DNA of 64,000 nucleotides from Escherichia coli (GTDB lineage Bacteria; Pseudomonadota; Gammaproteobacteria; Enterobacterales; Enterobacteriaceae), in the NCBI RefSeq assembly GCF_022846255.1, contig NZ_AP025682.1; one strand, 5' to 3'. This document shows, piece by piece, positions 1-14,007 of this stretch. Positions within the stretch are counted from its first letter, which is position 1. Each line of letters starts with the position of its first letter. Both the position numbers and the translations under genes were made by a program. Below the pieces are notes generated by a model that ran no database searches, was not told where the DNA came from, and saw nothing but the letters and a program-made list of their open reading frames with translations.

Positions 1-918
1 CTCCACGTGCCAGTGGTTTCGGATTGCTGTGGCGAACTTCTCTGCGGTTAAATCAGCAGAACTGATATAATATCTGACCGTCATTTCTGGCTATTTCTTT
101 TGTTCTGCTATTATGGACCGAAAGGAGACTGCCACGCATAATTTCTTCAGTCCTTTCCATTCAAACGTGAAATCAATAAGTTCATCAGGGACATCGCAAA
201 CAATATGAAGACGGATTTCTTCTCTGCCGTGACTTTTTTCACTAATTGCGTAACTGTCATGCTCTGGATTATTCAATTCTTTCAGCGGAAATTTTTCCTC
301 GAAGGCTTTATTTAGCCGCCCCTGGTTTCCTTTTACAGCGAATAAATAATCACCTCCCTGTTTTTGTATCTTCTCTGCAATATCTTTCTGGCAACCCATC
401 GCATCAGTTGTGATGATTTTTCCTTTAATATCCAGCATGTTAAGAAGTTCAGGGATAGCTGTAATTTCATTGGATTTCTCATCCGTCCTGATCTGTCCGA
501 TGACCAGACTGTGCATTGTTGAGAACGCACTAATGACATGAATCGCTCCCCTGCGGCGACTCTTGTCATAAGAATGTCGGAGCGTTTTTCCATCAATTGC
601 AATAACGTCTTTATCATCTGAAGAATGGCAGTCACGCATCCAGTTAATAAAGCACTCGTGAAATTTTGCAGGACTGATACAGGATACAACTCTGGCAATG
701 GTATCGTGAACAGGAATACCATTTTCAAAATCACCATATTGCTTCAAAAAATCGAGATGTGTTTCCCCAAAATCCTCTATATCTTCCCAGCCTTCTGCAC
801 CAGAAATAACGGCACAAATAGTCAACAGTAGAATATCCGATAATTTATGTTCCACTTTCCAGGCTTGTCTGTAATCGGGGATAATAGAAATATGTTCCAT
901 CAATTTTTTAAGTACCAT
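1..918 (-). mobile_element. ISAs1-family (H-repeat-associated) transposase gene, disrupted: in-frame TAG at 91-93, homologous reading frame continues to the window edge
   Basis: 275-aa [29 protein letters not shown]... matches the N-terminal three-quarters of E. coli H-repeat/ISAs1 transposases. Reverse-complement of 1-90 continues in frame as [30 protein letters not shown] after the stop. Confidence 0.7.
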
Positions 919-1147: not shown

Positions 1148-1468
1148 TTACTGTGACGTTATGCGCCCCGGACCACCGGCAGCAAGCGACGCCGCCGCAT
1201 CCTGAACTGCACCAGCCATATCCGAGATCCCTGCTGCTGCAGCGGCAGCCTGCGCAGCAGCTACTGCTGCTTTAACCAGACCTGACGGTTCCGGCAACGC
1301 ACCAAACAGGTCCGCCGCTGCCTGTTCTGCCATCTCCTCGGCGGCACCAGATACATCGGTTACGGCTGAACCTGTGCTCATACCGCCACTTTCGCCAGCT
1401 ATTGGTGGTGTGGTGATGACGGGTCCACCGTTTCCAGCTGGTTTGTTACCCGTAGATACAAAACTCAT
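1148..1468 (-). CDS. hypothetical small Ala/Gly-rich protein (106 aa), no recognisable domain
   Basis: ORF with an AGGA-containing putative RBS upstream of the ATG; low-complexity A/G-rich translation; GC-rich relative to AT-rich flanks; lies just downstream of a putative immunity gene. Confidence 0.3.
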
Positions 1469-1492: not shown

Positions 1493-1864
1493 TTAGAATT
1501 TAGCGCCCGGCTGCCAGAAAAAATAAGAAATAACCCGCCACTGTCCATCTTTATAATGAAAAAAACATGTCAGATTTAAATCCCCCCGCAAATGCCAAAA
1601 CATTTCTTTGATGGGAATATTTCTGAATTCAGTATTCGTTGAGCGATAGGTGTTTTCAATTTCTATATAATACTCACCGACAAATTTATAACGAGGCTTT
1701 ATAAATTCATACGCTGGCTGACCATAGTTATTTAATAGAACATTCTCTTCAACTCCATTATACACACCACTCGCATTCAGATAAGCATGCCCAGGAATAT
1801 CAGACATGCTATTTTTCGCCCCACCCACTATCAAAAAAATTATCACAGCGTATATTAGTTTCAT
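1493..1864 (-). CDS. putative periplasmic immunity protein (signal peptide), partner of the upstream HExxH protein
   Basis: N-terminal hydrophobic signal-like segment MKLIYAVIIFLIVGGAKN; start overlaps the stop of the upstream gene by 4 nt (translational coupling); no recognised domain. Confidence 0.4.
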   Translation of the reverse strand: MKLIYAVIIFLIVGGAKNSMSDIPGHAYLNASGVYNGVEENVLLNNYGQPAYEFIKPRYKFVGEYYIEIENTYRSTNTEFRNIPIKEMFWHLRGDLNLTCFFHYKDGQWRVISYFFWQPGAKF

Positions 1865-2601
1865 TTTTTTACGCTTTTCACAAAAAAATTAGAACCCGGA
1901 ACCATTCTATTTAACCGCTCAATGACATTTCTCATATAACGAGAGCGCAGTTCCATACCAATATTCATTAACGCACTGGCGTCCCCGGAGAATGGTGTAG
2001 TTGCTTTATCTGCATCATCACTATAGTATTCATCAGCAAGATATCCAATAATATGCCCAAGCTCGTGAGACAGCCCTATTTGCTCATGGCAAACTTTTGA
2101 TGAGCCAAGACATTTAGCTGCTGCAACTATATCTTTAGAGTCAAGTTCAACGTATCGACTATTCCAGACAATGGAACTCTGTCGAAAACTATTTGGATCA
2201 TCATTATCAATTTTAAACACCACCACATCCCAATACCCATGACGATCAGTCTGAATTATTTCTATTGAGAAAGATAAATCCTTACCATTAAACTTACTGG
2301 CAAACTCAGACTTCCCAGAAACGGATAAAAAAATCTTATTATTCCATGTTTGATTAATGACAAAAATAACTTTCCCATGAAAGGCATTTTTCTCCAAATC
2401 TGTCCAGTCAGTTTTTGCATCCCATCTTTTTATCCAATTATATTTCCATCTCAGCAACAATGAGATTGCACCATTTTCACGGTCAATTCTTAAATCTCCC
2501 CAGGCATCATTGTCCCTGATATATCGTTTATCCAGCATTAAGTCGTCATAAGCATCGTATGCCTGCTGAATAGCTTCATCATGAGAGTCACCCATGTTCA
2601 C
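1861..2601 (-). CDS. putative zinc-metallopeptidase-like protein (HExxH motif), candidate T6SS effector
   Basis: 246-aa ORF with strong RBS (AAGGAGG) and motif SHELGHIIGYLADEY; no signal peptide; followed by an overlapping signal-peptide ORF; located in the effector-rich tail of the T6SS island. Confidence 0.4.
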   Translation of the reverse strand: MNMGDSHDEAIQQAYDAYDDLMLDKRYIRDNDAWGDLRIDRENGAISLLLRWKYNWIKRWDAKTDWTDLEKNAFHGKVIFVINQTWNNKIFLSVSGKSEFASKFNGKDLSFSIEIIQTDRHGYWDVVVFKIDNDDPNSFRQSSIVWNSRYVELDSKDIVAAAKCLGSSKVCHEQIGLSHELGHIIGYLADEYYSDDADKATTPFSGDASALMNIGMELRSRYMRNVIERLNRMVPGSNFFVKSVKK

Positions 2602-2906: not shown

Positions 2907-2924
2907 GCAATTCCATGACAGGTA

Positions 2925-3398
2925 CTACTCATCCGTACAACCCAGCCCCCGGCGCTGAACCACTTCACTGGCAAACGTAGCTCCGGTTTTTTTCATTATT
3001 CCTTTTTGTATTTTTTGCAGCGCGGGAAATGAGATTCTCCTGCATGAATCCTCTTCCCATATATCACCAGTTACAGGACTAACTGAAAATAGTCCCCACA
3101 CATCTGTCGCTCCGGCGGAAGGAGAATCATAACCTACCCCAAAACTAAAATACCCAGGATGATACAGGTTACCTTTTTTATCTTTCAGAGAACCGTCAAG
3201 AAAAAACCCAGACAATTCCACATTATATTTTTCATTTTTTAGTGAAAAAACCAATAATGCCTGCGCCTGTATTTCAGTAAGACCTGACTGGTTAACAGTC
3301 GTTAGATCAAACCGCGGCACATTCCTGATAAGAATTTCAGCACAACAATTCACGGACACGACCATGAAAAGCAATACTGATATTAATTTACAGGACAT
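2925..3398 (-). CDS. putative periplasmic immunity protein (signal peptide) for the upstream GH73-like protein
   Basis: N-terminal signal-like segment MSCKLISVLLFMVVSVNCCA; overlaps the upstream gene by 16 nt; no recognised domain. Confidence 0.4.
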   Translation of the reverse strand: MSCKLISVLLFMVVSVNCCAEILIRNVPRFDLTTVNQSGLTEIQAQALLVFSLKNEKYNVELSGFFLDGSLKDKKGNLYHPGYFSFGVGYDSPSAGATDVWGLFSVSPVTGDIWEEDSCRRISFPALQKIQKGIMKKTGATFASEVVQRRGLGCTDE

Positions 3399-3853
3399 GT
3401 TATTCTCCGCTTAACCATATTAATCACCCACACTAACTCACTAGCATAACCGGTATGGCCGCCATTACTGTTTTTACCTGAATTAAAACCAGAATCAATC
3501 AATGCCTGCGCAAATTGCTCCGGAGATTTTTTATTTCTGACCGCATTACCAAATCGGATTGCAAAGGACTTTCCGCTAGTTGAAAAAAAGGTATAAGTGG
3601 CAACCCACACTTGATTACTCCCCAGCGGGTGAACCTGTCCTGACTGTAAAGGTGCCGGACCATGCATGGAAAAGTAGTTATTGTATTCTGTCGCGATTCT
3701 ACCCTGCCCGTAAAAGGACTCCTTTGCAGCAAGCCCCAGGATATTTTCCACAGGCACATCAAGTTGCTTAGCGATTAATTCACATTCTTTCAGATATTGC
3801 TGTACAAACCTGACTGCACCAGTGTTATTACAGGCTTTATCATAAGACCCCAT
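3383..3853 (-). CDS. GH73-like (FlgJ-type) N-acetylglucosaminidase-like protein, candidate peptidoglycan-targeting T6SS effector
   Basis: 156 aa, no signal peptide, RBS AAGGAG; motif LGLAAKESFYGQG...YNNYFSMHG resembles the GH73 catalytic region (AQAALESGWG...NNLFGIK) recalled from memory; immediately downstream of tagF. Confidence 0.45.
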   Translation of the reverse strand: MGSYDKACNNTGAVRFVQQYLKECELIAKQLDVPVENILGLAAKESFYGQGRIATEYNNYFSMHGPAPLQSGQVHPLGSNQVWVATYTFFSTSGKSFAIRFGNAVRNKKSPEQFAQALIDSGFNSGKNSNGGHTGYASELVWVINMVKRRITCPVN

Positions 3854-3880
3854 GATTCACTACTCCTTGTCTGATTATTT

Positions 3881-4651
3881 TTAATGCGGCCGGATATCCA
3901 GCCGCAACGCATCCACATACCGCCCCTCGCTGTTCTGCTGCCAGAACCAGCCCTGCCCCTGCTGCGCCTGCGTCAGCATTTTGTCCGGCCAGCCCGGCCA
4001 CGGCAGGTGGCGCACACCGGGCAGTTCCACTACCGGCACGTCCGGCAGGCCGGTGAGTTCCCGGCTACGCTGCGGTACACGTCGTAAGCCGCGTAGCCAC
4101 TGCGCCCAGCGCGGCCCCGGTCGCCACATCGCCCAGAGCTGGTCTGTCTGCTCCGCCAGTCGACCGCAGCGTTCTGTCTGTGGTGAGACATGAGCTGCCG
4201 TCAACTGCGCCAGCCAGTACAGCCAGCCCTGTGTGTCATCCAGGCTCTCTTCCAGCCATTCCCGCCCGACACGCTGGTAAATCACCAGTGGCCACGGCCT
4301 GCCCGTACTGTCACGCGAGGCGGTCAGGACCCCGGTCAGCCACTCATCGCGCCCGCCAATGGGGAGAAATCCCGGCGACAGCACAAAACTCCACGGCAAT
4401 GGGTGGTGCTCCGGTAGTGCCGTTTTCTCACGTGGTGACAGGTGCATCCAGCCGTCATTTGTTCCGGCCTTCGCAGCATCCGTTCCTTCCGGCAGAACAA
4501 TATGCCGTCCCTGTCCCAGCCACGTTTGCTGGTTCAGCCACGCCTGCCACACCTGCCCTTCGTTCGCGCTCACTCGCCAGCGCACATAGTCCCGCTGGTC
4601 CGGCAGTCTGCCGAACATCGCCGGGGCCGATATCTCTGCCCGGCGCATCAC
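3881..4651 (-). CDS. tagF: T6SS-associated protein TagF (ImpM family)
   Basis: N-terminal FGRLPDQRDYVRW matches the TagF signature (FGKLPxxGDFVxR); W-rich, GC-rich ORF downstream of the tssM/tae4 block. True start may be the internal Met of AMFGRLP. Confidence 0.6.
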   Translation of the reverse strand: MMRRAEISAPAMFGRLPDQRDYVRWRVSANEGQVWQAWLNQQTWLGQGRHIVLPEGTDAAKAGTNDGWMHLSPREKTALPEHHPLPWSFVLSPGFLPIGGRDEWLTGVLTASRDSTGRPWPLVIYQRVGREWLEESLDDTQGWLYWLAQLTAAHVSPQTERCGRLAEQTDQLWAMWRPGPRWAQWLRGLRRVPQRSRELTGLPDVPVVELPGVRHLPWPGWPDKMLTQAQQGQGWFWQQNSEGRYVDALRLDIRPH

Positions 4652-4836
4652 AACGTCCTTACCGGACAGGTGAAGTTTTTCAGCAATTCCCGGTAATACA
4701 GAACATAATTCTTCATTTCAATAATAAAGTCAGATATCAGGATTAATTTTCTTCCACAGGAATCAGAGCATTTATAATAAAATCGCTCAGGCATCCCCCC
4801 AACAAAGAGAACAGGAATCAGCTTCCAATAAAATTG

Positions 4837-5313
4837 TTAATTCAGTTCCCAGAACCAGATTTCCTTGCAGCTAAAATAGCAATGTGAATGACATATAGCA
4901 CCTGTGGTAGAAGGCTCAATAAGATCTATATGACCGCCACCGTAACCCGTAATTTTCCAGAAAAAGACCACTCCTCTTTTATTACTGGTGTCTGTTTTAA
5001 ATTTTTCTGAGTCACACCAGATAACTGGTCTTCCAAAAACATCAGCTCGGGAAAGCTGATCTGCCAGTAATTTCGCACCGGTTTCTATTTTCTTCCCTTT
5101 CCAGTCACCACTTTTGATCGTCAGTCGCCCGTTAAAGCTGACGCCTGATTTAATCAGCGCCAGACTCATACGTGTGGCACAGGTATTTACATAACCAGCA
5201 TTTTGCTGTTGCAGTGCTTCATAGTTATAACCCACTTCACTGTACAAAACATCACCATCAATCTGAACTGATGAGTAATGGTTTTTTTTAAGTGTGAAAA
5301 ATGAAGGTTTCAT
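4837..5313 (-). CDS. tae4: Tae4-family peptidoglycan amidase effector
   Basis: 158 aa; motif NTCATRMSLALIKSG matches the Tae4 catalytic Cys region (NACPIRMSYVLN) and GGGHIDL the His region, by recall of Salmonella/Enterobacter Tae4; no signal peptide; start overlaps the stop of the upstream signal-peptide gene. Confidence 0.65.
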   Translation of the reverse strand: MKPSFFTLKKNHYSSVQIDGDVLYSEVGYNYEALQQQNAGYVNTCATRMSLALIKSGVSFNGRLTIKSGDWKGKKIETGAKLLADQLSRADVFGRPVIWCDSEKFKTDTSNKRGVVFFWKITGYGGGHIDLIEPSTTGAICHSHCYFSCKEIWFWELN

Positions 5314-6005
5314 TTATTATTTCCTTTATCACAGGAGTGTTTACTTAGTGCCTCAATAATAATATTTGCAGCCCGTTCATTCAGTTTATCTGACGTTTTT
5401 TTTCTGAAATACCAGTAAATAATCTCATCCAGTGTAACTGTTTTAATCGTTTTATAATCGCACCATGTTTTTCTTTCCGTGGCATCTTCTATACCCAAAA
5501 GATAGATTTTCGCATTAAGCCTATCCTGCCTGTTATCTGACTGCCAGAAGCGGAAAAAATCATCTCCGTTCAGATCGAACGCGCCAGAGGTCAGGTGTGA
5601 AACAGATGAATGCCGGGGAGATTTTTTTTCCGGTGATGCCATATCCGGGCAGGGAAACAGCCTGACCATCGCTTGTTCAATCAGAGTTGAAGCTCGCATA
5701 TTCATATCGTTAACCGACTGCTGATTAAGATATGTCAGTACCGATGAATAAAGTTCTATTTCATTAATCTTATTATATCCACACCAGGTTTTACTTTCTG
5801 TCGCATCACTCACACCAAGGACATACATCAGAACATTTTCTTTTTCCTGTGACGTTCCACGAGCATAAAATGACAAAAATTCCTGCGCACTGAGATTAAT
5901 ATAATCGGGGTCAATAGTTCCTGTGTTTTTTCTGATATCAGCAAAAACATTTCCTGACATGGCATATAACAAAAAAATAATAAAAAAACGCGTATATTGT
6001 TGCAT
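5310..6005 (-). CDS. tai4: Tai4-like periplasmic immunity protein, internally tandem-duplicated (two homologous domains)
   Basis: Signal peptide MQQYTRFFIIFLLYAMSGNVFA; the two halves are visibly homologous (…VLMYVLGVSDATESKTWCGYNKI… versus …KIYLLGIEDATERKTWCDYKTI…); 4-nt overlap with tae4. Confidence 0.5.
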   Translation of the reverse strand: MQQYTRFFIIFLLYAMSGNVFADIRKNTGTIDPDYINLSAQEFLSFYARGTSQEKENVLMYVLGVSDATESKTWCGYNKINEIELYSSVLTYLNQQSVNDMNMRASTLIEQAMVRLFPCPDMASPEKKSPRHSSVSHLTSGAFDLNGDDFFRFWQSDNRQDRLNAKIYLLGIEDATERKTWCDYKTIKTVTLDEIIYWYFRKKTSDKLNERAANIIIEALSKHSCDKGNNK

Positions 6006-6251
6006 ATCATGCTTCCTGAATCACGGTAGTAGGATGGTCGCTATAACGTCGGTTTAAGAAAGTTTATAGTTTTGTTGCGTCGTTGCCCTGCCATCTCAGT
6101 ATATAAGTGACATTAATGGTGCCTTTTTGCTCACCTGGTGTAACGGCCTGTTTTAGCATACAACTCCACGTCAAGACATCCGTGAATGCAGCCTTTAGCA
6201 TAGTCACATGGGTCCGGTAGTCTGCCAACGATACTGCCGCCGCCCGGCGTA

Positions 6252-9200
6252 TCACAGCGCTCGCTCCGGGCAGGCGAAGCGTTGTAATAGTCCGCGATCC
6301 ACTGGGTCAAAATCCCGTCCGGCGGTGATTTCCAGTATCACCCGCCGCCCGTCAAAGCTGTACTCCACCTGCTGTGTTCCCCGTACCGCCGTTTCTTGCG
6401 CTTTTCCCGCATCCAGCAGGTGAAACAGCGCCCACGGTCCATTAGTCAGCAGCGTCGAGGTGTCCTGGCGGATGCGCGGGCTGGCGGTTATTTCCGCCAT
6501 TGAGCCGTTGCGCGGACCCGGCCAGTTCACTTTCAGCGGCCTGACCGGGCCGTGAGCGTAACGCAGTACCTGGCCGTCAATGTCAATCACCAGTTCGGTG
6601 ATGGCCGGGTCCATATCCACGACGCGGACCTGCATCGCCCATGAGAACTTTTTCCCTCCGTCGCCGTTAAAAAACACGCTGCGGATCTGTTTCGCCTCCT
6701 GAAACGGCGTCAGGTCTGGACCCTGTAAGGTCATGTTGCCTTCGGTCGGTTTGTAGCGCCACGGGTTGCTGGCGGTATCCGCCAGTGGGGCCAGTTGCTT
6801 CGTCCAGAAGGCATCCAGCACGCCGCCGCTGGCAAAGATACGGTTAAAATCGTCCGCGCTGACCTCCTGCGGGCTGTCGGTGAAGGGGTAGCGCCCGTCG
6901 ATGGCGTCGCGGCACTCATCACCGATCACCGCCTCCATCTGCGCGTTCAGCACTTCACCGGTGCCGGCGTTGATTTTTCGCGTTCCCTGCTGCGTGAGAT
7001 CCAGCAGAATATTTTTCAGCGGCGCGGGCAGTTTTGCCGCCTCCAGTTGCAGTTTATCCGCCGCAGAAATGCGCCCCGGCAGAGTGCTCGCAGCCAGCGC
7101 ACTGTCGGCAATGGTGAGCTGGGTGTAGTACTCATTGAGCATCGTCAGCAGCGAATTTAATTGCGGCACGCCGCCGCCCTGCCCGCTGTCCGTCTGCCCG
7201 GAAACCACTTCCCGCAGGGCGGCGAAACGGTCATCCACCAGTGATTTTTCCAGCCGCTCTTCCGGGTGAATGTCCTGCAACAGCTTCGCCGTCTGCACCG
7301 CTTTTCCCGCATTGCCGGAGAGCCGGTCCTGCGCGCGCTGGGCCATCTGCTTTTGTCTGGCCTGCGCATTCAGCGGCGGCACCAGCGTGGTCTGCTCCAC
7401 CACCGCTTTACTCAGGCGCATCAGCGGGGAATCCGGCGAGGCCAGAGTACGCAGCACCTGAAGGTCATACGCTAGTCCAGGGCTACCGTCCTCCCCGGCG
7501 CTGTTGATGCTGTGAATGCTTGCCAGAAAATCCTGCCATCGGCGAGCATATTCAGCCAGGTACAGACGACGTACCTCACGGGTAACCGGGAGTTCCTGCC
7601 CCGGCAACTGGCTCATCACAATATCAGTCGTTTTTTTTTGCGCACTTTCCCGGCCCATCACCCAGGCGTCGTCCGCTGATGCGGCGGCGACAAACTCCGA
7701 CAGCCGTTTGTCGAACAGTTCCCGGTAGCCTTCGCGGGTGAAGATGCCGGGCACGCCCCTGTCCAGCGGCGCGCCATCCGTGCGGACAAAAACTGTTCCC
7801 GCATCCGCGCCCACAGCGCGAACCAGCGAAAACTCCTGCGGTGCTTCGCTCTCCATGGAAGCCAGGGCTCGAGTGTAGATACGCTCAGTGCTGGTATGGC
7901 CGTCAAGGAAGGCCCGCGCCTGGCGGATCAGCCCCTCATCTTTTTCCCAGGGCGAATGCACCACGCGGCTGCCGTCAAACAGGGCGTCAATATGCTCCAG
8001 CACGGCTGCGCGACCGCCAAACTCCGCTACGCTGTCGCGGTTGTCCAGATCGTTCAGCACCCAGGCGTGGATCTCCGCCGCGTTGTATTTGTCCTCGTGG
8101 TCCTTATCGAGGTTCAGCAGCAGATAAACATGCAGGGCGTCATAGGCGGCTTTGCTGTCCTGACGCGCAATCGCATCTGAAAGCACGTATTCCATTCGTT
8201 TCACCAGCGGAGGGAGCAGTAGCTGGTCCAGCAGGCGGTCATACAGGGATGCGACACTCTCCATCACCGGCGGGACGCTGTAAAGACCATAACGCCAGGC
8301 CAGCGGCGGCGAGTCCGGGTCCAGCCCCGGCCAGGCAGAGAGCGCCCGCGCCTGGTTCAGCAGGGCCGGAACAGGCTGCATAGCAGGTTTTCCGGTATAG
8401 GCTTTGACATCACCATCCAGTTGGGTCGTCCGGCTGGCGATTTCATTCAGATAACCGCTGTTACCCTGCTGGCTACCCTGCATTCCCTGCCACAACCAGA
8501 AAGCCAGCGCCAATACCAGCAGATGCCCGCCGGTACGCAGCAGGCGATAACGCCAGGCCCATTGAAGATTCGGCTCCACCAGGTGCGCTTCGCGGAAGAT
8601 AAACTGCGTCAGTAGATCGTGCAGGAAATAGCTGCGGTTGCCGTCCGGCAGGGTATGGGATGGGGAATCCGCCTTCCCTTTGATCGCCCGGACAAAACGC
8701 TGCCAGATGCCCGTCTGATCGGCCACCGCGTCTGCCTGCGCCTGCGCGGCACTGGTGAAAAATACGCCGCGCAGGGTGTTGTTAAGCTGGGTAGCATCAA
8801 ATTTTGAATCGAGGAAAATCTGTTCAATAGCTTCCAGCAGCGGCGCACCCAGCGCGGCAAATTCACGCGGGAAGCGGTAGAGCCGCTGACGGCTTTTAAG
8901 GTCATATTCTTCCTGCAACCGGGTATCCAGCCCCTGATCCAGCCGCTGTGTCAGGTTTGCCAGTTCCCGGCCACAGAGCGCATGCAGCGACTGCGGATCG
9001 CTGGCGTGACGCCTGCGGCTGTAAGGCAGGGTGAAGCCCCAGACCTGGGCTCGCAGGTGACTGGTCAACCCACGGAAATACTCCGTAAAGCCCGGCAGCA
9101 GATCCATCTTGGTGACAACCAGATAGACCGGAAAACGAATGCCCAGCGTCTCCCGCAGTTCCGCCAGCCGCGCACGCAGAGCTGCACAGGCAGCCAGCCG

Positions 9201-10118
9201 TTCCGCCGGGGACTGCGCGGTCAGATCCGCCACGTTCAGCGTCAGGATCACGCCGTTGAGCGGTGCGCCGGGGCGGTGTTTACGCAGCAGTCCCAGAAAC
9301 CCCTGCCACTCCCCGGCGTTGCGCTGGGTCGCGCTGATTTCGCCACCGTCATCGTGGCGAGCATAGCGCCCGGCGGTGTCAATAAGCACTGCTTCGTTGG
9401 TAAACCACCAGTCGCAGTGCAGCGTGCCGCCGCCCGGCACGGTGAGAATATGCGCGGTTTGCTCCATCTGCTCCGCCAGCGGAAACTGTAGCCCGGTGTT
9501 AAGCAGCGCGGTGGTTTTACCATCGCCGGGGCTGCCGATAACCATAAACCACGGCAGCTCGTACAGAAAACGCTTTCCTTCCAGGACTTTTCGCCAGCCA
9601 GGAAGATCCACACGCAGTTGTTTCAGTTGCCGGATGGCGCGGTTGACAATATGGCTGACGGTACGCAGGTCGGCTTTAATTTCCCCCTCCACCGGTACGT
9701 CTTCCCCACGCGGATGCAGGAAACGGCGCAGCAGTTGTTCATCCAGACGCAGCGCCCGCCACAGCCGGTACAGGCCATACAGCGCATAAGTCAGCAGGAT
9801 CAGACCGATAAGCGTCAGACGCAGCCACAGCGGCGCAAATGGATGAACATCACCGAGGGACAGCAGGGGTGAAACAAAACCGATGACCAGGCACAGAACC
9901 GTCACGCCAATGATGCTCATCGACCAGTTAACCAGCCACAGTGCGAGGAACATCAGTAACAGAACGATGGTGACTACCCGACTTCCCACAGACGCGAGCG
10001 GATGCACGGTGTCAAACGCCACCAGCGGCCCGATAAACCAGACCAGCAGCGCCAGTACCGCCACGCCGACAACAGCCAGCGCGCGGCGGGAAAACAGCAG
10101 ACTGAGAAATTTTTGCAT
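6252..10118 (-). CDS. tssM: T6SS membrane core protein TssM (IcmF family)
   Basis: 1288 aa; N-terminal transmembrane segments, Walker A GSPGDGKTT, large periplasmic C-terminal region; typical IcmF architecture. Confidence 0.9.
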   Translation of the reverse strand: MQKFLSLLFSRRALAVVGVAVLALLVWFIGPLVAFDTVHPLASVGSRVVTIVLLLMFLALWLVNWSMSIIGVTVLCLVIGFVSPLLSLGDVHPFAPLWLRLTLIGLILLTYALYGLYRLWRALRLDEQLLRRFLHPRGEDVPVEGEIKADLRTVSHIVNRAIRQLKQLRVDLPGWRKVLEGKRFLYELPWFMVIGSPGDGKTTALLNTGLQFPLAEQMEQTAHILTVPGGGTLHCDWWFTNEAVLIDTAGRYARHDDGGEISATQRNAGEWQGFLGLLRKHRPGAPLNGVILTLNVADLTAQSPAERLAACAALRARLAELRETLGIRFPVYLVVTKMDLLPGFTEYFRGLTSHLRAQVWGFTLPYSRRRHASDPQSLHALCGRELANLTQRLDQGLDTRLQEEYDLKSRQRLYRFPREFAALGAPLLEAIEQIFLDSKFDATQLNNTLRGVFFTSAAQAQADAVADQTGIWQRFVRAIKGKADSPSHTLPDGNRSYFLHDLLTQFIFREAHLVEPNLQWAWRYRLLRTGGHLLVLALAFWLWQGMQGSQQGNSGYLNEIASRTTQLDGDVKAYTGKPAMQPVPALLNQARALSAWPGLDPDSPPLAWRYGLYSVPPVMESVASLYDRLLDQLLLPPLVKRMEYVLSDAIARQDSKAAYDALHVYLLLNLDKDHEDKYNAAEIHAWVLNDLDNRDSVAEFGGRAAVLEHIDALFDGSRVVHSPWEKDEGLIRQARAFLDGHTSTERIYTRALASMESEAPQEFSLVRAVGADAGTVFVRTDGAPLDRGVPGIFTREGYRELFDKRLSEFVAAASADDAWVMGRESAQKKTTDIVMSQLPGQELPVTREVRRLYLAEYARRWQDFLASIHSINSAGEDGSPGLAYDLQVLRTLASPDSPLMRLSKAVVEQTTLVPPLNAQARQKQMAQRAQDRLSGNAGKAVQTAKLLQDIHPEERLEKSLVDDRFAALREVVSGQTDSGQGGGVPQLNSLLTMLNEYYTQLTIADSALAASTLPGRISAADKLQLEAAKLPAPLKNILLDLTQQGTRKINAGTGEVLNAQMEAVIGDECRDAIDGRYPFTDSPQEVSADDFNRIFASGGVLDAFWTKQLAPLADTASNPWRYKPTEGNMTLQGPDLTPFQEAKQIRSVFFNGDGGKKFSWAMQVRVVDMDPAITELVIDIDGQVLRYAHGPVRPLKVNWPGPRNGSMAEITASPRIRQDTSTLLTNGPWALFHLLDAGKAQETAVRGTQQVEYSFDGRRVILEITAGRDFDPVDRGLLQRFACPERAL

Positions 10119-10445: not shown

Positions 10446-10901
10446 TCAAAATTCTCTGGATAGAATAATATAGCCATTGAATCTTACGGAACACTCATTT
10501 TCATTAATAAGGCCGGATGCAATAAAAACATCTTTCCCTCTGTCATTGTTAATATAGGTATATTTTGCCACAATAGACTTGGCATGATTTTCATAGTAGC
10601 TATCAAAATACGATTTTTCATCTAACATTGCCTTCTTATTTCTGGCTTTGTCCTTCTCATAATCAATCTTAGCCAGAGACTCTGCATAAAACTTAGACAC
10701 AGGAGAAACATCAAGAACTTCTACCCTTGTTTTATCTCTTAAAATAGTAGAAGAATTTATATTCAAATCACTTTTCATTGCATCAAATAACGACAACTCT
10801 ATTGAGGCTCCAACCGTAGCGCAACCATCATTTTGTGCATATGAAATTGCAGGTATGCCAGCTAACAGGCAGATTATTACCTTGAACATATTAGTCCTCA
10901 A
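10446..10901 (-). CDS. putative periplasmic immunity protein (Tldi-like) for the upstream L,D-transpeptidase-like effector
   Basis: 151 aa with signal peptide MRTNMFKVIICLLAGIPAISYA; AT-rich; overlaps the effector gene end by 11 nt. Confidence 0.45.
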   Translation of the reverse strand: MRTNMFKVIICLLAGIPAISYAQNDGCATVGASIELSLFDAMKSDLNINSSTILRDKTRVEVLDVSPVSKFYAESLAKIDYEKDKARNKKAMLDEKSYFDSYYENHAKSIVAKYTYINNDRGKDVFIASGLINENECSVRFNGYIILSREF

Positions 10902-11259
10902 CCACTAATATTTTATCAGTACTGGCAGCAATAACCTTGCGATAAGGTAAATCCAGAATTATACAGCCATCAGAGGCTTCTCCTGGATGGGCTGAACTCT
11001 CTCCGTGTATCATGAAACCGTCACGCCCGCACATTTGATTTTCGGGGTAAGGCGTGAGCCTCATCGTCCATGCTCTTGTTCTGGCATGAAAAAATGCAAG
11101 TCCAATTGTATATGTACCTCTTGGCAATGGTCCCTTATCTCTTACACACTCATTAACAGAGTCATCTTTAAAACCCGGTCTGCCAGAATATCTGGCATTG
11201 AACTGATAGCTACCATTTAAATAAAATGAACGTGCATTAATTTTGTATACCCAAGGCAT
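10891..11259 (-). CDS. Tlde1-like (DUF2778, L,D-transpeptidase-fold) T6SS effector
   Basis: 122 aa; motifs KGPLPRGTYTIG and FMIHGESSAHPGEASDGCIIL match the His-x(14-17)-S-x-G-C signature described for Tlde1/YkuD-like effectors; no signal peptide. Confidence 0.55.
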   Translation of the reverse strand: MPWVYKINARSFYLNGSYQFNARYSGRPGFKDDSVNECVRDKGPLPRGTYTIGLAFFHARTRAWTMRLTPYPENQMCGRDGFMIHGESSAHPGEASDGCIILDLPYRKVIAASTDKILVVED

Positions 11260-11350: not shown

Positions 11351-12667
11351 TCACTCCACCACCAGAATTTCCACCCGACGGTTCTGCGCCCGTCCGGTTT
11401 TAGTGCGGTTATCGGTCACCGGTACGGTATCTCCTTTCCCGACAACCCGGATCCGGCGGGCCGGAATACCATCGGACGTCAGCAGTGAAGCCACTTCCGC
11501 CGCCCGTTTTTCCGACAATACCTGGTTGGACGGGAATTCAGCGGAGTGGATCGGCTGGCTGTCCGTGTGGCCGGTCACCGTCACCGCGCCCCCCACACGC
11601 GCAATCTCACGCGCGGCCTTGTCAATCACCGGGCGCAGCGCATCATTCACGGTTTTCTGCCCCGGTATAAACATCGTATCGCCACGAAAAATTACACGGC
11701 TGTGATGGTCATCTTCCTCCACCGTCAGCAGGCCACGGGCGATTTCGTTCGCCAGCAGGATTTTCAACCGCAGTTTATGCACCGGAACGGGTGGCGGAGG
11801 AAGATTTTTACCAATGGCGTCGATACGCTGTTGTACGGTTTCGGTGGCGAGGTTCATCCGGTGGCTGTAAAGGCCAAACAGCGTCAGCATCACCAGCAGG
11901 GCGATTCCGGCGCTCAGCCAGACCGGCACCCGGCGCATCCGCCGCATTCGCCCACTGACGGCACCGGCAAAACCCGGCGAGAGCGTCGGCGTGATCGGAT
12001 CGCGACGCTGGACCAGTTGAGTCAGCAGTTGCTGGCGGATATCGTCCAGTTGTTTACGCCCGTCAGGCCGTACACTGTAGCGGCCTTCAAAACCCAGTCC
12101 CAGAATGTGGTAAATGATTTCCAGTACATCGCTGTGCTCCTGGAAGCTGGCGGCCAGACGCCCGATTATCTGAAACAGCTTGATGCCGCCTTCACTTTCG
12201 CCATGAAAAGTCACCAGCAGGCTCTTCCCGGCCCAGACACCGCGTCGCCCCCAGACGGTGTTGTTGGCAGCTTCATCCAGCGCCGTGCACACGCAGTAAC
12301 GTACCGCCAGCACATGTTCGCGGCGCAGGTTTGCCTGGTCGCACAGCGTCTGATACCGGCGGACTTCACGCTCCAGTAGGGCGCGATAATGTTCGACAAA
12401 ACCAGGGGAAAGTTCACGGGGCATTTGCGCCAGCGCGCATAACAGAGGGCTGGCCGCCGCCAGAAGAGGATTCACAGCAGCAGTGATCTCAGCCAAGCGG
12501 AGCTTCAAATCTGGCCCGTCTTCAACCACCATTTTTATATCTTCCCTGCGAAGGCTGTCCTGGACGAGCGTATCGTAACCGTCATTATCAGGCGACCTTG
12601 TTCCCCTCATTGAAGGCTGTAATTGCAGGGTATTCACCGCAGGTTGCGTCAGAATATCGTCGGTCAT
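11351..12667 (-). CDS. tssL: TssL (DotU family) with C-terminal OmpA-like peptidoglycan-binding domain
   Basis: 438 aa; DotU-like N-terminal region, one transmembrane segment (VWLSAGIALLVMLTLFGLY), C-terminal OmpA/MotB-like motif GHTDSQ...NRRVEILV. Confidence 0.8.
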   Translation of the reverse strand: MTDDILTQPAVNTLQLQPSMRGTRSPDNDGYDTLVQDSLRREDIKMVVEDGPDLKLRLAEITAAVNPLLAAASPLLCALAQMPRELSPGFVEHYRALLEREVRRYQTLCDQANLRREHVLAVRYCVCTALDEAANNTVWGRRGVWAGKSLLVTFHGESEGGIKLFQIIGRLAASFQEHSDVLEIIYHILGLGFEGRYSVRPDGRKQLDDIRQQLLTQLVQRRDPITPTLSPGFAGAVSGRMRRMRRVPVWLSAGIALLVMLTLFGLYSHRMNLATETVQQRIDAIGKNLPPPPVPVHKLRLKILLANEIARGLLTVEEDDHHSRVIFRGDTMFIPGQKTVNDALRPVIDKAAREIARVGGAVTVTGHTDSQPIHSAEFPSNQVLSEKRAAEVASLLTSDGIPARRIRVVGKGDTVPVTDNRTKTGRAQNRRVEILVVE

Positions 12668-14007
12668 TTATCGCGAACTCCCCACAGCTCCAGCTCCAGC
12701 CCTGGAAACTCTCCGGCGGTATGCATTGCCATGCCACCATAGCGGGCGATATGTTCCCACAACACGCCGTCGCGGCGGATGTCGTAATAGATGTAACCGG
12801 ACTGGAACGGGATCTGACGCGGTGGCACTGGCAGCACCTGTAGAACAAGACCAGGAAGGTGCGAGCGAATCAGTTCCGGCAGGCGTTCTGATGGCCCTAT
12901 TTTGGTCTGAGCCGAAAAATGTTGTAGTAAGGTGTCGGCGGACATCTGTGCCTTCACCGCCAATACTAACGAGCTGAAATCTGACAGTTCGGTAGGTTCA
13001 ACCACCGCATTGAGAATACCGTAAGTTCCCTCTTCCAGAGGGATTCGCTGCGCCCCACGTATTAGCACAGCATTCAGCAGATACTGAACCTCGTCCACCA
13101 CCGATTTCAGCCCGGCATAGGGCGTCAGGTGCTTATATTCTTTATATTCTTCCGGACGACGTGTTTGCGGACGCACGTAGGTAGAGAGTTCTCCGGCCAG
13201 TGCGCAGAGGTTACGATAGAGTACTTCAGGCGATAGCGGCGTTTTCGACATATGGATCAATAAGGGGCCGAAACGATTAAGAACTTGCAGAAGCAGGTAA
13301 TCCGACACTTCCGCCGCTTCATGACCGTGTTTGTCGCTCCCCGTCAATCGTTCCGCCAGCGAATCTGCACGCATTTTTATCAGATCGTTAATCCACGACA
13401 GCCAGGTACATATCAGCGTACTGGCCTGGTAGTTCGCCACTGGCGGGATCAACTCTTTGTCTATATCGACCCGACCATCGGGATGCAGCGCCGTGATGCG
13501 CGTCAGCGGCAGGCCGATCCACGCGTCTGTCACCGCCTTTTCCGGTAACAGTCGCAAGCGCAGGTGGCTAAGTTGCAGCAGTTGCGCGCCTCGCCCCAGC
13601 GAATTGGCATCACGGATTTCACTTTCATGTACCGAAAAACGTGCCAGTGATTCAGGGTTATTGTCGAAACTGGTTTCTTCACTGTTCGGCGTACGTATTG
13701 GCACAGCCAGATAAATCAACTGGTTAAGATGTTCTGGAAGGATGGTCAGAGGCGGCGGGAGTGGTGTATGACCCGGCGCATTAAAAGGTGTACCGTCAGC
13801 AAATACCCCGGAAGCCTTCGTAAGTACCAGTTTTCCGATGTTCAGCGCCTCACTACCAATACCATACTCATTGAAGCCCCAGTAAAAAGGTGAAAGAGGC
13901 AAACTGCGATAATGAATGACATGTTCCAGATAGCGTTCCTGCTGCTGAAACATCTGTGGCAACAAAAATTGTCCTTCACTCCAGACCACCCGGTTATTCC
14001 AACTCAT
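12664..14007 (-). CDS. tssK: T6SS baseplate protein TssK
   Basis: 447 aa; N-terminus MSWNNRVVWSEGQFLLPQMFQQQERY typical of TssK; 4-nt overlap with tssL. Confidence 0.85.
   Translation of the reverse strand: MSWNNRVVWSEGQFLLPQMFQQQERYLEHVIHYRSLPLSPFYWGFNEYGIGSEALNIGKLVLTKASGVFADGTPFNAPGHTPLPPPLTILPEHLNQLIYLAVPIRTPNSEETSFDNNPESLARFSVHESEIRDANSLGRGAQLLQLSHLRLRLLPEKAVTDAWIGLPLTRITALHPDGRVDIDKELIPPVANYQASTLICTWLSWINDLIKMRADSLAERLTGSDKHGHEAAEVSDYLLLQVLNRFGPLLIHMSKTPLSPEVLYRNLCALAGELSTYVRPQTRRPEEYKEYKHLTPYAGLKSVVDEVQYLLNAVLIRGAQRIPLEEGTYGILNAVVEPTELSDFSSLVLAVKAQMSADTLLQHFSAQTKIGPSERLPELIRSHLPGLVLQVLPVPPRQIPFQSGYIYYDIRRDGVLWEHIARYGGMAMHTAGEFPGLELELWGVRDK

Follow-up and report, generated by a model that had tools for sequence, protein, structure and literature searches.

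A tandem Rap1a immunity gene and a Tae4 effector gene in a T6SS cluster

The window analyzed here, a 64,000-nucleotide stretch of the Escherichia coli genome (contig NZ_AP025682.1), contains a gene cluster for a type VI secretion system (T6SS), in which a two-gene cassette encodes a 158-amino-acid (aa) effector and, immediately upstream of it, a 231-aa immunity protein composed of two homologous domains (Table 1). An earlier note, made from the sequence alone, had described this pair as a Tae4 amidase effector and a tandem-duplicated, Tai4-like immunity protein. The list of open reading frames (ORFs) and our reading of the bases agreed with that note on the ORF coordinates, the 4-nucleotide overlap of the two genes, and the strings quoted from the translation. 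In the overlap, the stop codon of the immunity gene shares bases with the start codon of the effector gene; this ATGA arrangement implies that the two genes would be translationally coupled. Shine-Dalgarno-like sequences (AGGAAG and AAGGAAA) precede both genes, and a scan of positions 4500 to 6400 for promoters and terminators gave no more sites than shuffled sequence. The GC content is 38% in the immunity gene and 40% in the effector gene, compared with 61% in tssM and 59 to 65% in the core genes. A low-GC cassette is usual for the exchangeable variable regions in T6SSs of the type resembling that of Salmonella pathogenicity island 6 (SPI-6) (PMC10469887). The cluster is an SPI-6-like T6SS on the E. 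coli chromosome, and the two-gene cassette fills the variable region 3' of tssM.

Table 1. Positions in the window of the cassette, the parts of the immunity protein, and T6SS genes
Feature	Position	Strand	Basis
Immunity gene, 231 aa	5310..6005	minus	ORF list
Effector gene, 158 aa	4837..5313	minus	ORF list
ATGA stop/start overlap	5310..5313	minus	Base reading (plus-strand TCAT)
Signal peptide, residues 1-22 (MQQYTRFFIIFLLYAMSGNVFA)	5940..6005	minus	By inspection
Domain 1, residues 30-121, Rap1a fold, Cys75 and Cys119	5643..5918	minus	Hidden Markov model envelope, Pfam
Linker, residues 122-136 (MASPEKKSPRHSSVS)	5598..5642	minus	Sequence
Domain 2, residues 137-227, Rap1a-like, Cys182 and Cys225	5325..5597	minus	~48% identity to Serratia Rap1a
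tssM, core T6SS gene 5' of the cassette	6252..10118	minus	ORF and annotation of homologous locus
tagF, downstream flank of the cassette	3881..4651	minus	NCBIfam TIGR03373 (E = 1.2e-10) and homologous-locus annotation
tssK	12664..14007	minus	
tssL	11351..12667	minus	
Tlde1 effector-immunity pair	10446..11259	minus	

The 158-aa protein matched the Pfam family Tae4 (PF14113; residues 41 to 155, E = 1.1e-15) and aligned end to end with Ssp1 of Serratia marcescens (PDB 4bi3; residues 1 to 157, E = 1.7e-57). Cys45, in the motif NTCATRMS, and His128, in GGHIDL, align with the catalytic dyad of Ssp1, Cys50 and His133, consistent with the Cys motif and His region that had been read from the sequence before, and the pair Cys141-x3-Cys145 aligns with Cys146/Cys150, which form a disulfide at the active site of Ssp1. 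These matches identify the effector as a Tae4-family amidase of the Ssp1 subgroup. By analogy to Ssp1, which is a peptidoglycan DL-endopeptidase delivered by a T6SS (PMC3852654), it would act as a peptidoglycan DL-endopeptidase/amidase. Rap1a-type immunity proteins are the constant partners of Ssp1-like effectors (PMC3852654), and the effector gene, placed between tssM and tagF, adjoins such a gene here; the effector itself lacks a signal peptide. Between E. coli alleles, the effector had a dN/dS ratio (nonsynonymous to synonymous substitution rates) of 0.16, a value based on few substitutions. NCBIfam held no curated model for either the effector or the immunity protein.

The immunity protein comprises two Rap1a domains in one chain

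The 231-aa protein gave two separate matches to the Pfam family Rap1a (PF18602), at residues 49 to 119 (E = 1e-10) and 154 to 223 (E = 3e-9). The two halves aligned to each other without gaps over 79 residues (32% identity, E = 4e-18), and the repeat strings GVSDATESKTWCGYNKI (residues 64 to 80) and GIEDATERKTWCDYKTI (residues 171 to 187) were found in the translation; the self-alignment therefore bears out the earlier claim of two homologous halves. Judged by eye, residues 1 to 22 start with a basic n-region that leads into a hydrophobic core and end in VFA, and they contain no lipobox cysteine. There is one such segment; in line with the earlier note, it looks like a Sec-type signal peptide, which would make the immunity protein periplasmic. 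Rap proteins are periplasmic and Sec exported (PMC3533786). The 15-residue linker between the domains is hydrophilic and rich in Pro, Ser and Lys, and no second signal peptide or relic of one was seen in it.

In searches against PDB sequences, the 231-aa protein matched Serratia Rap1a at E = 1.7e-25 (3zfi/4bi8) and, with domain 1, Agrobacterium Tai4 at E = 2.3e-7 (6ijf), the latter being the only PDB sequence match of this domain. The cysteine pairs 75/119 and 182/225 correspond to the Cys78-Cys122 disulfide of Rap1a, and all four cysteines are invariant in a 14-protein alignment of two-domain homologues; a disulfide is therefore predicted within each domain. No classical Tai4 chain was found among the PDB sequence matches at E ≤ 10 or among the significant Foldseek matches. 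Rap1a is structurally distinct from EcTai4, StTai4 and Rap2a, and the name "Tai4a" has been proposed for it (PMC3852654). The domains of the 231-aa protein have this Rap1a/Tai4a fold (PF18602) and not the classical Tai4 fold. The description "Tai4-like" is thus to be taken in the sense of the Rap1a/Tai4a type.

The characterized chains of this fold are about half as long: Serratia Rap1a has 101 to 104 residues and Agrobacterium Tai4 has 107 to 109 (PMC3852654, PMC6277958). Comparison with these lengths supports the statement in the earlier note that the relatives are single-domain proteins of roughly half the size. Both proteins form tight homodimers via helix α2 and need an internal disulfide; each dimer takes up two effectors to give a 2:2 heterotetramer, in which helix α4 and the α4-α5 loop block the active site (PMC3852654, PMC6277958). 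With two domains per chain, the 231-aa protein departs from the single-domain α2 homodimer of the Rap1a family; it is a family member by domain content and a variant by architecture. In the 10 E. coli genomes in which the gene was found, it is annotated as "Rap1a/Tai family immunity protein."

A fusion of two genes by a sequencing error or frameshift was considered and ruled out, the gene being intact in 9 of the 10 E. coli genomes as well as in other genera and having no remnant of a second signal peptide. An assembly artifact is likewise excluded because the gene recurs in E. coli genomes and other genera, has a single signal peptide, and has a hydrophilic linker. In the tenth genome, that of strain E04 (locus L011; 99.6% nucleotide identity), two annotated ORFs stand in place of the one immunity gene, and the ORF of the effector is truncated as well. 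This split copy probably reflects a homopolymer indel error or recent decay.

The two domains are predicted to pack as one unit

An AlphaFold2 model based on a 28-row alignment of two-domain homologues had a mean predicted local distance difference test score (pLDDT) of 88.5 and a predicted template modeling score (pTM) of 0.88. Apart from the chain ends, confidence was low only in the linker (mature residues 101 to 110, pLDDT 50). Each domain has five helices in this model. In a Foldseek search, one model domain superposed on Rap1a (4bi8_A) with a TM-score of 0.96 and a root mean square deviation (rmsd) of 0.8 over 94 residues, which fits the five-helix fold of Rap1a; for domain 1, this fold is assigned from the AlphaFold model and the Pfam match only. 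The AlphaFold Protein Structure Database (AFDB) model of an identical E. coli protein superposed over all 209 residues (query-normalized TM-score [TMq] 0.96, rmsd 1.8), and the AFDB models of Salmonella homologues with 48 to 52% identity had the same arrangement (TMq 0.93 to 0.94). No PDB chain spanned both domains (best query-normalized TM-score, 0.44). Because the pTM is 0.88 despite a flexible linker, the mutual orientation of the domains is confidently fixed in the model, and the two domains are predicted to be packed rigidly as one unit.

To compare the two domains, we located the residues reported for Rap1a in each of them and scored the positions for family-likeness against single-domain proteins. 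In either domain, conservation is highest at the dimer-interface positions. Their pairwise identity in the enteric clade is 0.85 in domain 1 and 0.71 in domain 2, compared with 0.55 to 0.58 elsewhere, and their family-likeness (2.90 and 2.41) is on a par with that in single-domain proteins (2.44). From this conservation, we infer that the domains pack through the α2-α2 geometry of Rap1a.

Such conservation cannot separate pairing within a chain from pairing between chains. If domains of different chains paired, in swapped dimers or chains, the protein would function as an oligomer that offers at least two sites for the effector; a linker of just 15 residues and an interface conserved in both domains are compatible with this. 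We nevertheless consider such intermolecular pairing highly improbable, given that three separately computed AlphaFold models have the same compact intramolecular form (pTM 0.88; TMq 0.93 to 0.96) and that the architecture persists even though the linker ranges from ~15 to ~45 residues between lineages.

Only domain 2 retains the family-like effector-contact surface

The positions that contact Ssp1 in Rap1a differ between the domains. Their family-likeness is 1.28 in domain 2 and 0.28 in domain 1, with a baseline of 1.33 in single-domain proteins, and the asymmetry has the same direction in two other lineages (1.25 versus 0.32 and 1.12 versus 0.69). At the helix that in Rap1a blocks the effector active site, domain 2 has the motif KTVTLDE, Rap1a has QTVTLQE, and most single-domain members have K-T-[IV]-T-[LI]-x-E; this motif survives in domain 2 only, and domain 1 has NEIELYS in its place. 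In the enteric clade, Trp154, Lys188, Thr191 and Glu194 of domain 2 are invariant. The contact-equivalent positions of α3-α4 in domain 1 are its most variable, with identities of 0.08 to 0.22, except for the position equivalent to Rap1a Gln84 (0.58). In net charge and pI, the domains followed no consistent trend among the orthologues.

Domain 1 is not decaying; both domains are under purifying selection. Conservation across orthologues is equal (57% for domain 1 and 58% for domain 2). A comparison of two E. coli alleles gave dN/dS ratios of 0.065 for domain 1 (1 nonsynonymous and 4 synonymous changes) and 0.12 for domain 2. Selection on the linker is relaxed (5 nonsynonymous changes and 1 synonymous change), and the whole immunity gene has a dN/dS ratio of 0.23 against the allele of strain A20, all of these figures resting on few substitutions.

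A single-chain pseudo-dimer as a model for Tae4 neutralization

Based on the predicted packing and the asymmetry of the domains, we favor, as the most likely arrangement, a single-chain pseudo-dimer with domain 2 as the part that blocks Tae4, domain 1 mainly as a dimer partner, and a complex of 1:1 composition. In this model, the effector would be injected into the periplasm of a rival cell, where it would cut the bond between D-glutamate and meso-diaminopimelic acid in the stem peptides of peptidoglycan. The immunity protein would be exported by means of its single Sec signal peptide and would fold in the periplasm into two disulfide-stabilized, five-helix Rap1a domains. Packing of these domains through their α2 helices would allow one chain to mimic the obligate homodimer of Rap1a and Agrobacterium Tai4. 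Domain 2, as the presumed inhibitory domain, would occlude the cognate Tae4 at its active site, in the same way that Rap1a acts on Ssp1. Domain 1 would keep its dimerization face and act chiefly as a built-in partner, with a divergent and fast-changing surface at the effector site. The expected outcome is a 1:1 complex in place of the 2:2 heterotetramer.

Several observations weigh against this model. The α2-α2 geometry is read from conservation, and AlphaFold may assign the co-variation of homodimers to contacts between the two domains, which would favor a packed result. In domain 1, Tyr47, Lys55 and Leu59 are invariant at three contact-equivalent positions, and the purifying selection on this domain makes some binding function possible. 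Divergence in step with the effector is equal for the two domains (mirror-tree r of 0.89 for domain 1 and 0.91 for domain 2) and does not discriminate between them. Moreover, the dN/dS values for the immunity gene are based on small numbers of changes. Finally, a linker-fused Tae4-(G4S)8-immunity-(G4S)8-Tae4 model, built on a hand-made block alignment, had a pTM of 0.45, and neither effector copy was docked confidently; we regard this model as uninformative, and it supports no stoichiometry.

Some of these observations are also what would be expected if both domains bound the cognate Tae4, domain 1 with a re-evolved contact surface, such that a 1:2 complex would mirror the 2:2 heterotetramer. 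The subunits of Rap1a hold their own effector sites at opposite ends of the dimer, and there would accordingly be no steric bar to two effectors. Purifying selection acts on domain 1, whose divergence tracks that of the effector no less closely than the divergence of domain 2 does and which keeps Tyr47 and Lys55, the equivalents of the contact residues Tyr50 and Lys58 of Rap1a. However, the blocking-helix positions are the least conserved in domain 1 across orthologues with effectors of 60 to 78% identity, the family motif is missing from domain 1 in all three lineages examined, and the fused model with two effector copies and one immunity chain docked neither copy. On balance, we regard binding of two cognate effectors as rather unlikely and retain the pseudo-dimer with a single inhibitory domain.

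The tandem form is a recurrent minority, beside one Ssp1-type Tae4 gene or as an orphan

When a set of 1.84 billion representative proteins was scanned in full with HMMER, 143 family clusters were identified, of which 12 are two-domain and none is three-domain. Among the species-representative genomes of GTDB, 3 of 35 Rap1a loci have the two-domain form (Citrobacter amalonaticus, Enterobacter sp. ENT03, and a betaproteobacterial metagenome-assembled genome). Altogether, the tandem form is known from E. coli, Salmonella, Citrobacter, Enterobacter and betaproteobacteria, and AFDB contains not only the identical protein of E. coli but also homologues with two domains from several serovars of Salmonella enterica. 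The immunity gene is rare in E. coli, being present in 10 of 5,426 complete E. coli genomes at 95.5 to 100% identity, and a distant-mode search of complete E. coli genomes with the gene from the window returned the same 10 genomes only. Two-domain orthologues of other genera have 45 to 60% identity. In the literature (open-access papers and bioRxiv, including that on Salmonella T6SSs), we found no description of a tandem, two-domain or duplicated Rap1a or Tai4 protein.

Of the tandem genes, 11 from distant lineages each precede one, and no more than one, Ssp1-type Tae4 gene, mostly with stop and start codons that overlap or abut. The earlier note had drawn attention to the immunity gene preceding the effector gene; the order is real but not peculiar to this locus, since it is the norm in the family, where a short overlap is also frequent (order in ~23 of 32 single-domain loci and 3 of 3 two-domain loci in the species-representative scan).

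Two further tandem genes are orphans that lie between tssL and tlde1 in clusters without Tae4. The proteins encoded by these orphans (L002, positions 4001 to 4783; L014, positions 3001 to 3918) are ~47 to 50% identical to the protein of the window, and no match to the L002 orphan came up in a near-mode search of complete E. coli genomes. Both orphans are candidates for acquired defenses against Tae4-armed competitors.

E. coli GCA_013744235.1 (L012) has two different tandem-Rap1a/Tae4 modules in one cluster, one on each side of tssM. The first (6001 to 7277; 261 aa and 164 aa) is located between tssL and tssM, which is the position of the Tlde1 pair in the window, and the second (11548 to 12716; 231 aa and 158 aa) lies 3' of tssM as in the window. 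The presence of two modules in this cluster supports that they are exchangeable cassettes that have been swapped between variable regions. The two modules presumably do not cross-protect.

The relation between the domains was analyzed in a neighbor-joining tree of 90 columns with 40 bootstraps. In the enteric clade, the domain-1 sequences formed one clade in 40/40 replicates and the domain-2 sequences in 38/40, and the two clades were sisters in only 1/40. Because the domain clades are not sisters, the tandem arose by an old duplication or by the fusion of already diverged paralogues, and the two-domain state is thus older than the divergence to about 50% identity. As for the "internal duplication" proposed earlier, the tandem homologous domains are there, but the tree does not fit a recent event in place. 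The two domains of another lineage, P0010, share 66% identity and came out as sisters in 24/40 bootstraps, which weakly supports an independent origin of this tandem, or multiple origins.

These data are relevant to a further possibility, namely that domain 2 acts against the cell's own Tae4 and domain 1 against Ssp1-type Tae4 effectors of non-kin competitors, the protein being a fusion of a cognate and an orphan Rap1a. The tree is in line with a fusion of diverged paralogues; orphans of the Rap1a type and additional Tai4 genes are frequent, some clusters without Tae4 carry a two-domain orphan, and the contact surface of domain 1 varies fast, as an arms race predicts. In addition, polyimmunity proteins are already established as a concept (PMC3482391). 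Yet domain 1 is further from known single-domain Rap1a proteins (best match 0.41) than domain 2 is (0.50), and no candidate partner effector was identified for it. The E. coli strain with two full modules suggests that neither tandem protein evidently covers the effector of the other. Finally, the asymmetry recurs where the duplication looks independent, which fits a structural role better than repeated fusions with orphans. For these reasons, we hold a polyvalent protein to be quite unlikely. Equally improbable, in our estimation, is the broader proposal that fusion freed domain 1 from the cognate toxin and made its α3-α4 surface an evolvable second specificity that arose repeatedly in proteobacterial lineages. 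We therefore continue to favor the pseudo-dimer in which domain 1 mainly supports domain 2.

Other features of the T6SS cluster

Elsewhere in the window, a 111-nucleotide direct repeat (90% identical; positions 2797 to 2907 and 3897 to 4007) brackets positions 2908 to 3896. The bracketed cassette of ~990 bp is not in the locus of E. coli 2014C-3338, which is otherwise 98.5 to 99.7% identical. The second copy of the repeat is the 3' end of tagF and the first copy is a duplicated gene end. The repeats and the inserted ~990 bp look like the footprint of a cassette insertion. Two overlapping ORFs on the minus strand lie within it. The first (3383..3853) encodes a 156-aa protein with a weak likeness to FlgJ-type peptidoglycan hydrolases (NCBIfam, E = 6e-4, far under the cut-off), and the second (2925..3398) encodes a 157-aa protein with an N-terminal hydrophobic leader. 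The two proteins are probably a further peptidoglycan-targeting effector-immunity pair, in this case with the effector gene first.

On the same strand, an ORF for a 246-aa protein with the HExxH-like motif HELGHIIG (1861..2601) overlaps an ORF for a 123-aa protein with a signal-peptide-like start (1493..1864). Neither protein had an NCBIfam match, and both are annotated as hypothetical in related genomes; judged from these sequence features, they may be a metallopeptidase-type effector-immunity pair.

Compared with 2014C-3338, positions 1 to 1468 of the window are missing ~7.2 kb beside a transposase gene of the ISAs1/ISEc1 family (91..918). The missing segment comprises the larger part of vgrG, a DcrB-related gene, and an Rhs effector gene together with the gene 3' of it. 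The vgrG remnant comprises the sequence of the first ~137 codons, with an open 106-aa ORF at 1148..1468. The VgrG-Rhs module appears to have been lost from this cluster.

Relation to known immunity systems and significance

The closest characterized system is Rap1a-Ssp1 (3zfi, 4bi3 and 4bi8). As in that system, the effector has a Cys-His dyad and a C-x3-C pair and matches over its full length, and the immunity gene, within a T6SS cluster, directly precedes the effector gene and encodes a periplasmic Sec substrate, the latter here as judged from sequence. Domain 2 resembles Rap1a in identity (~48%), structure (rmsd 0.8), cysteines, interface residues and blocking-helix motif. Unlike Rap1a, which has one domain of ~100 mature residues and as an obligate homodimer binds two Ssp1 molecules, the protein described here has two diverged domains in one chain, of which only domain 2 is family-like at the effector-contact positions. 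The effector differs from Ssp1 in its α1-α2 loop, which is a Rap1a contact in Ssp1 and is 5 residues shorter here. The Agrobacterium tumefaciens Tae4-Tai4 pair (6ije and 6ijf) shares the Rap1a-type fold and the disulfide cysteines, and its Tai4 is an α2 homodimer in a 2:2 complex; unlike the protein of the window, this Tai4 is single-domain, and it is 23 to 26% identical in structural alignment. The classical Tai4 proteins (EcTai4, StTai4, Rap2a, Rap1b and Rap2b) are likewise helical, dimeric, disulfide-containing periplasmic immunity proteins against Tae4-family effectors, but they have another fold and inhibit via a protruding loop with contacts from both subunits.

Several immunity domains in one polypeptide are also a feature of the polyimmunity proteins described by Zhang et al. 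in 2012, which contain tandem SUKH repeats (PMC3482391). Those proteins are mostly cytoplasmic, their genes generally lie apart from those of toxins, and the domains are believed to target different toxins independently of one another (PMC3482391). In contrast, the protein of the window would be periplasmic and translationally coupled to one effector, and it is built from the domain of an obligate dimer. The tandem repeat thus probably takes the place of quaternary structure instead of contributing further specificities.

The family, the fold and the general mechanism are already known, and no concept is overturned; what is new is a recurrent and conserved two-domain architecture, which the label "Rap1a/Tai family immunity protein" conceals. 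The Tae4 immunity proteins studied so far are homodimers, and 2:2 complexes are the textbook picture of neutralization. A natural, unequal single-chain form is a test of why immunity needs dimerization. The tandem form may alter the stoichiometry of toxin to antidote, and it shows a route open to immunity proteins in the T6SS arms race, namely duplication or fusion followed by asymmetry. Were the second-specificity reading true, it would provide a built-in broadening of T6SS immunity to cover both the cell's own Tae4 and non-kin Ssp1-type Tae4 effectors. The orphan copies in Salmonella and in relatives of E. coli could give resistance to Tae4-armed competitors in the gut.

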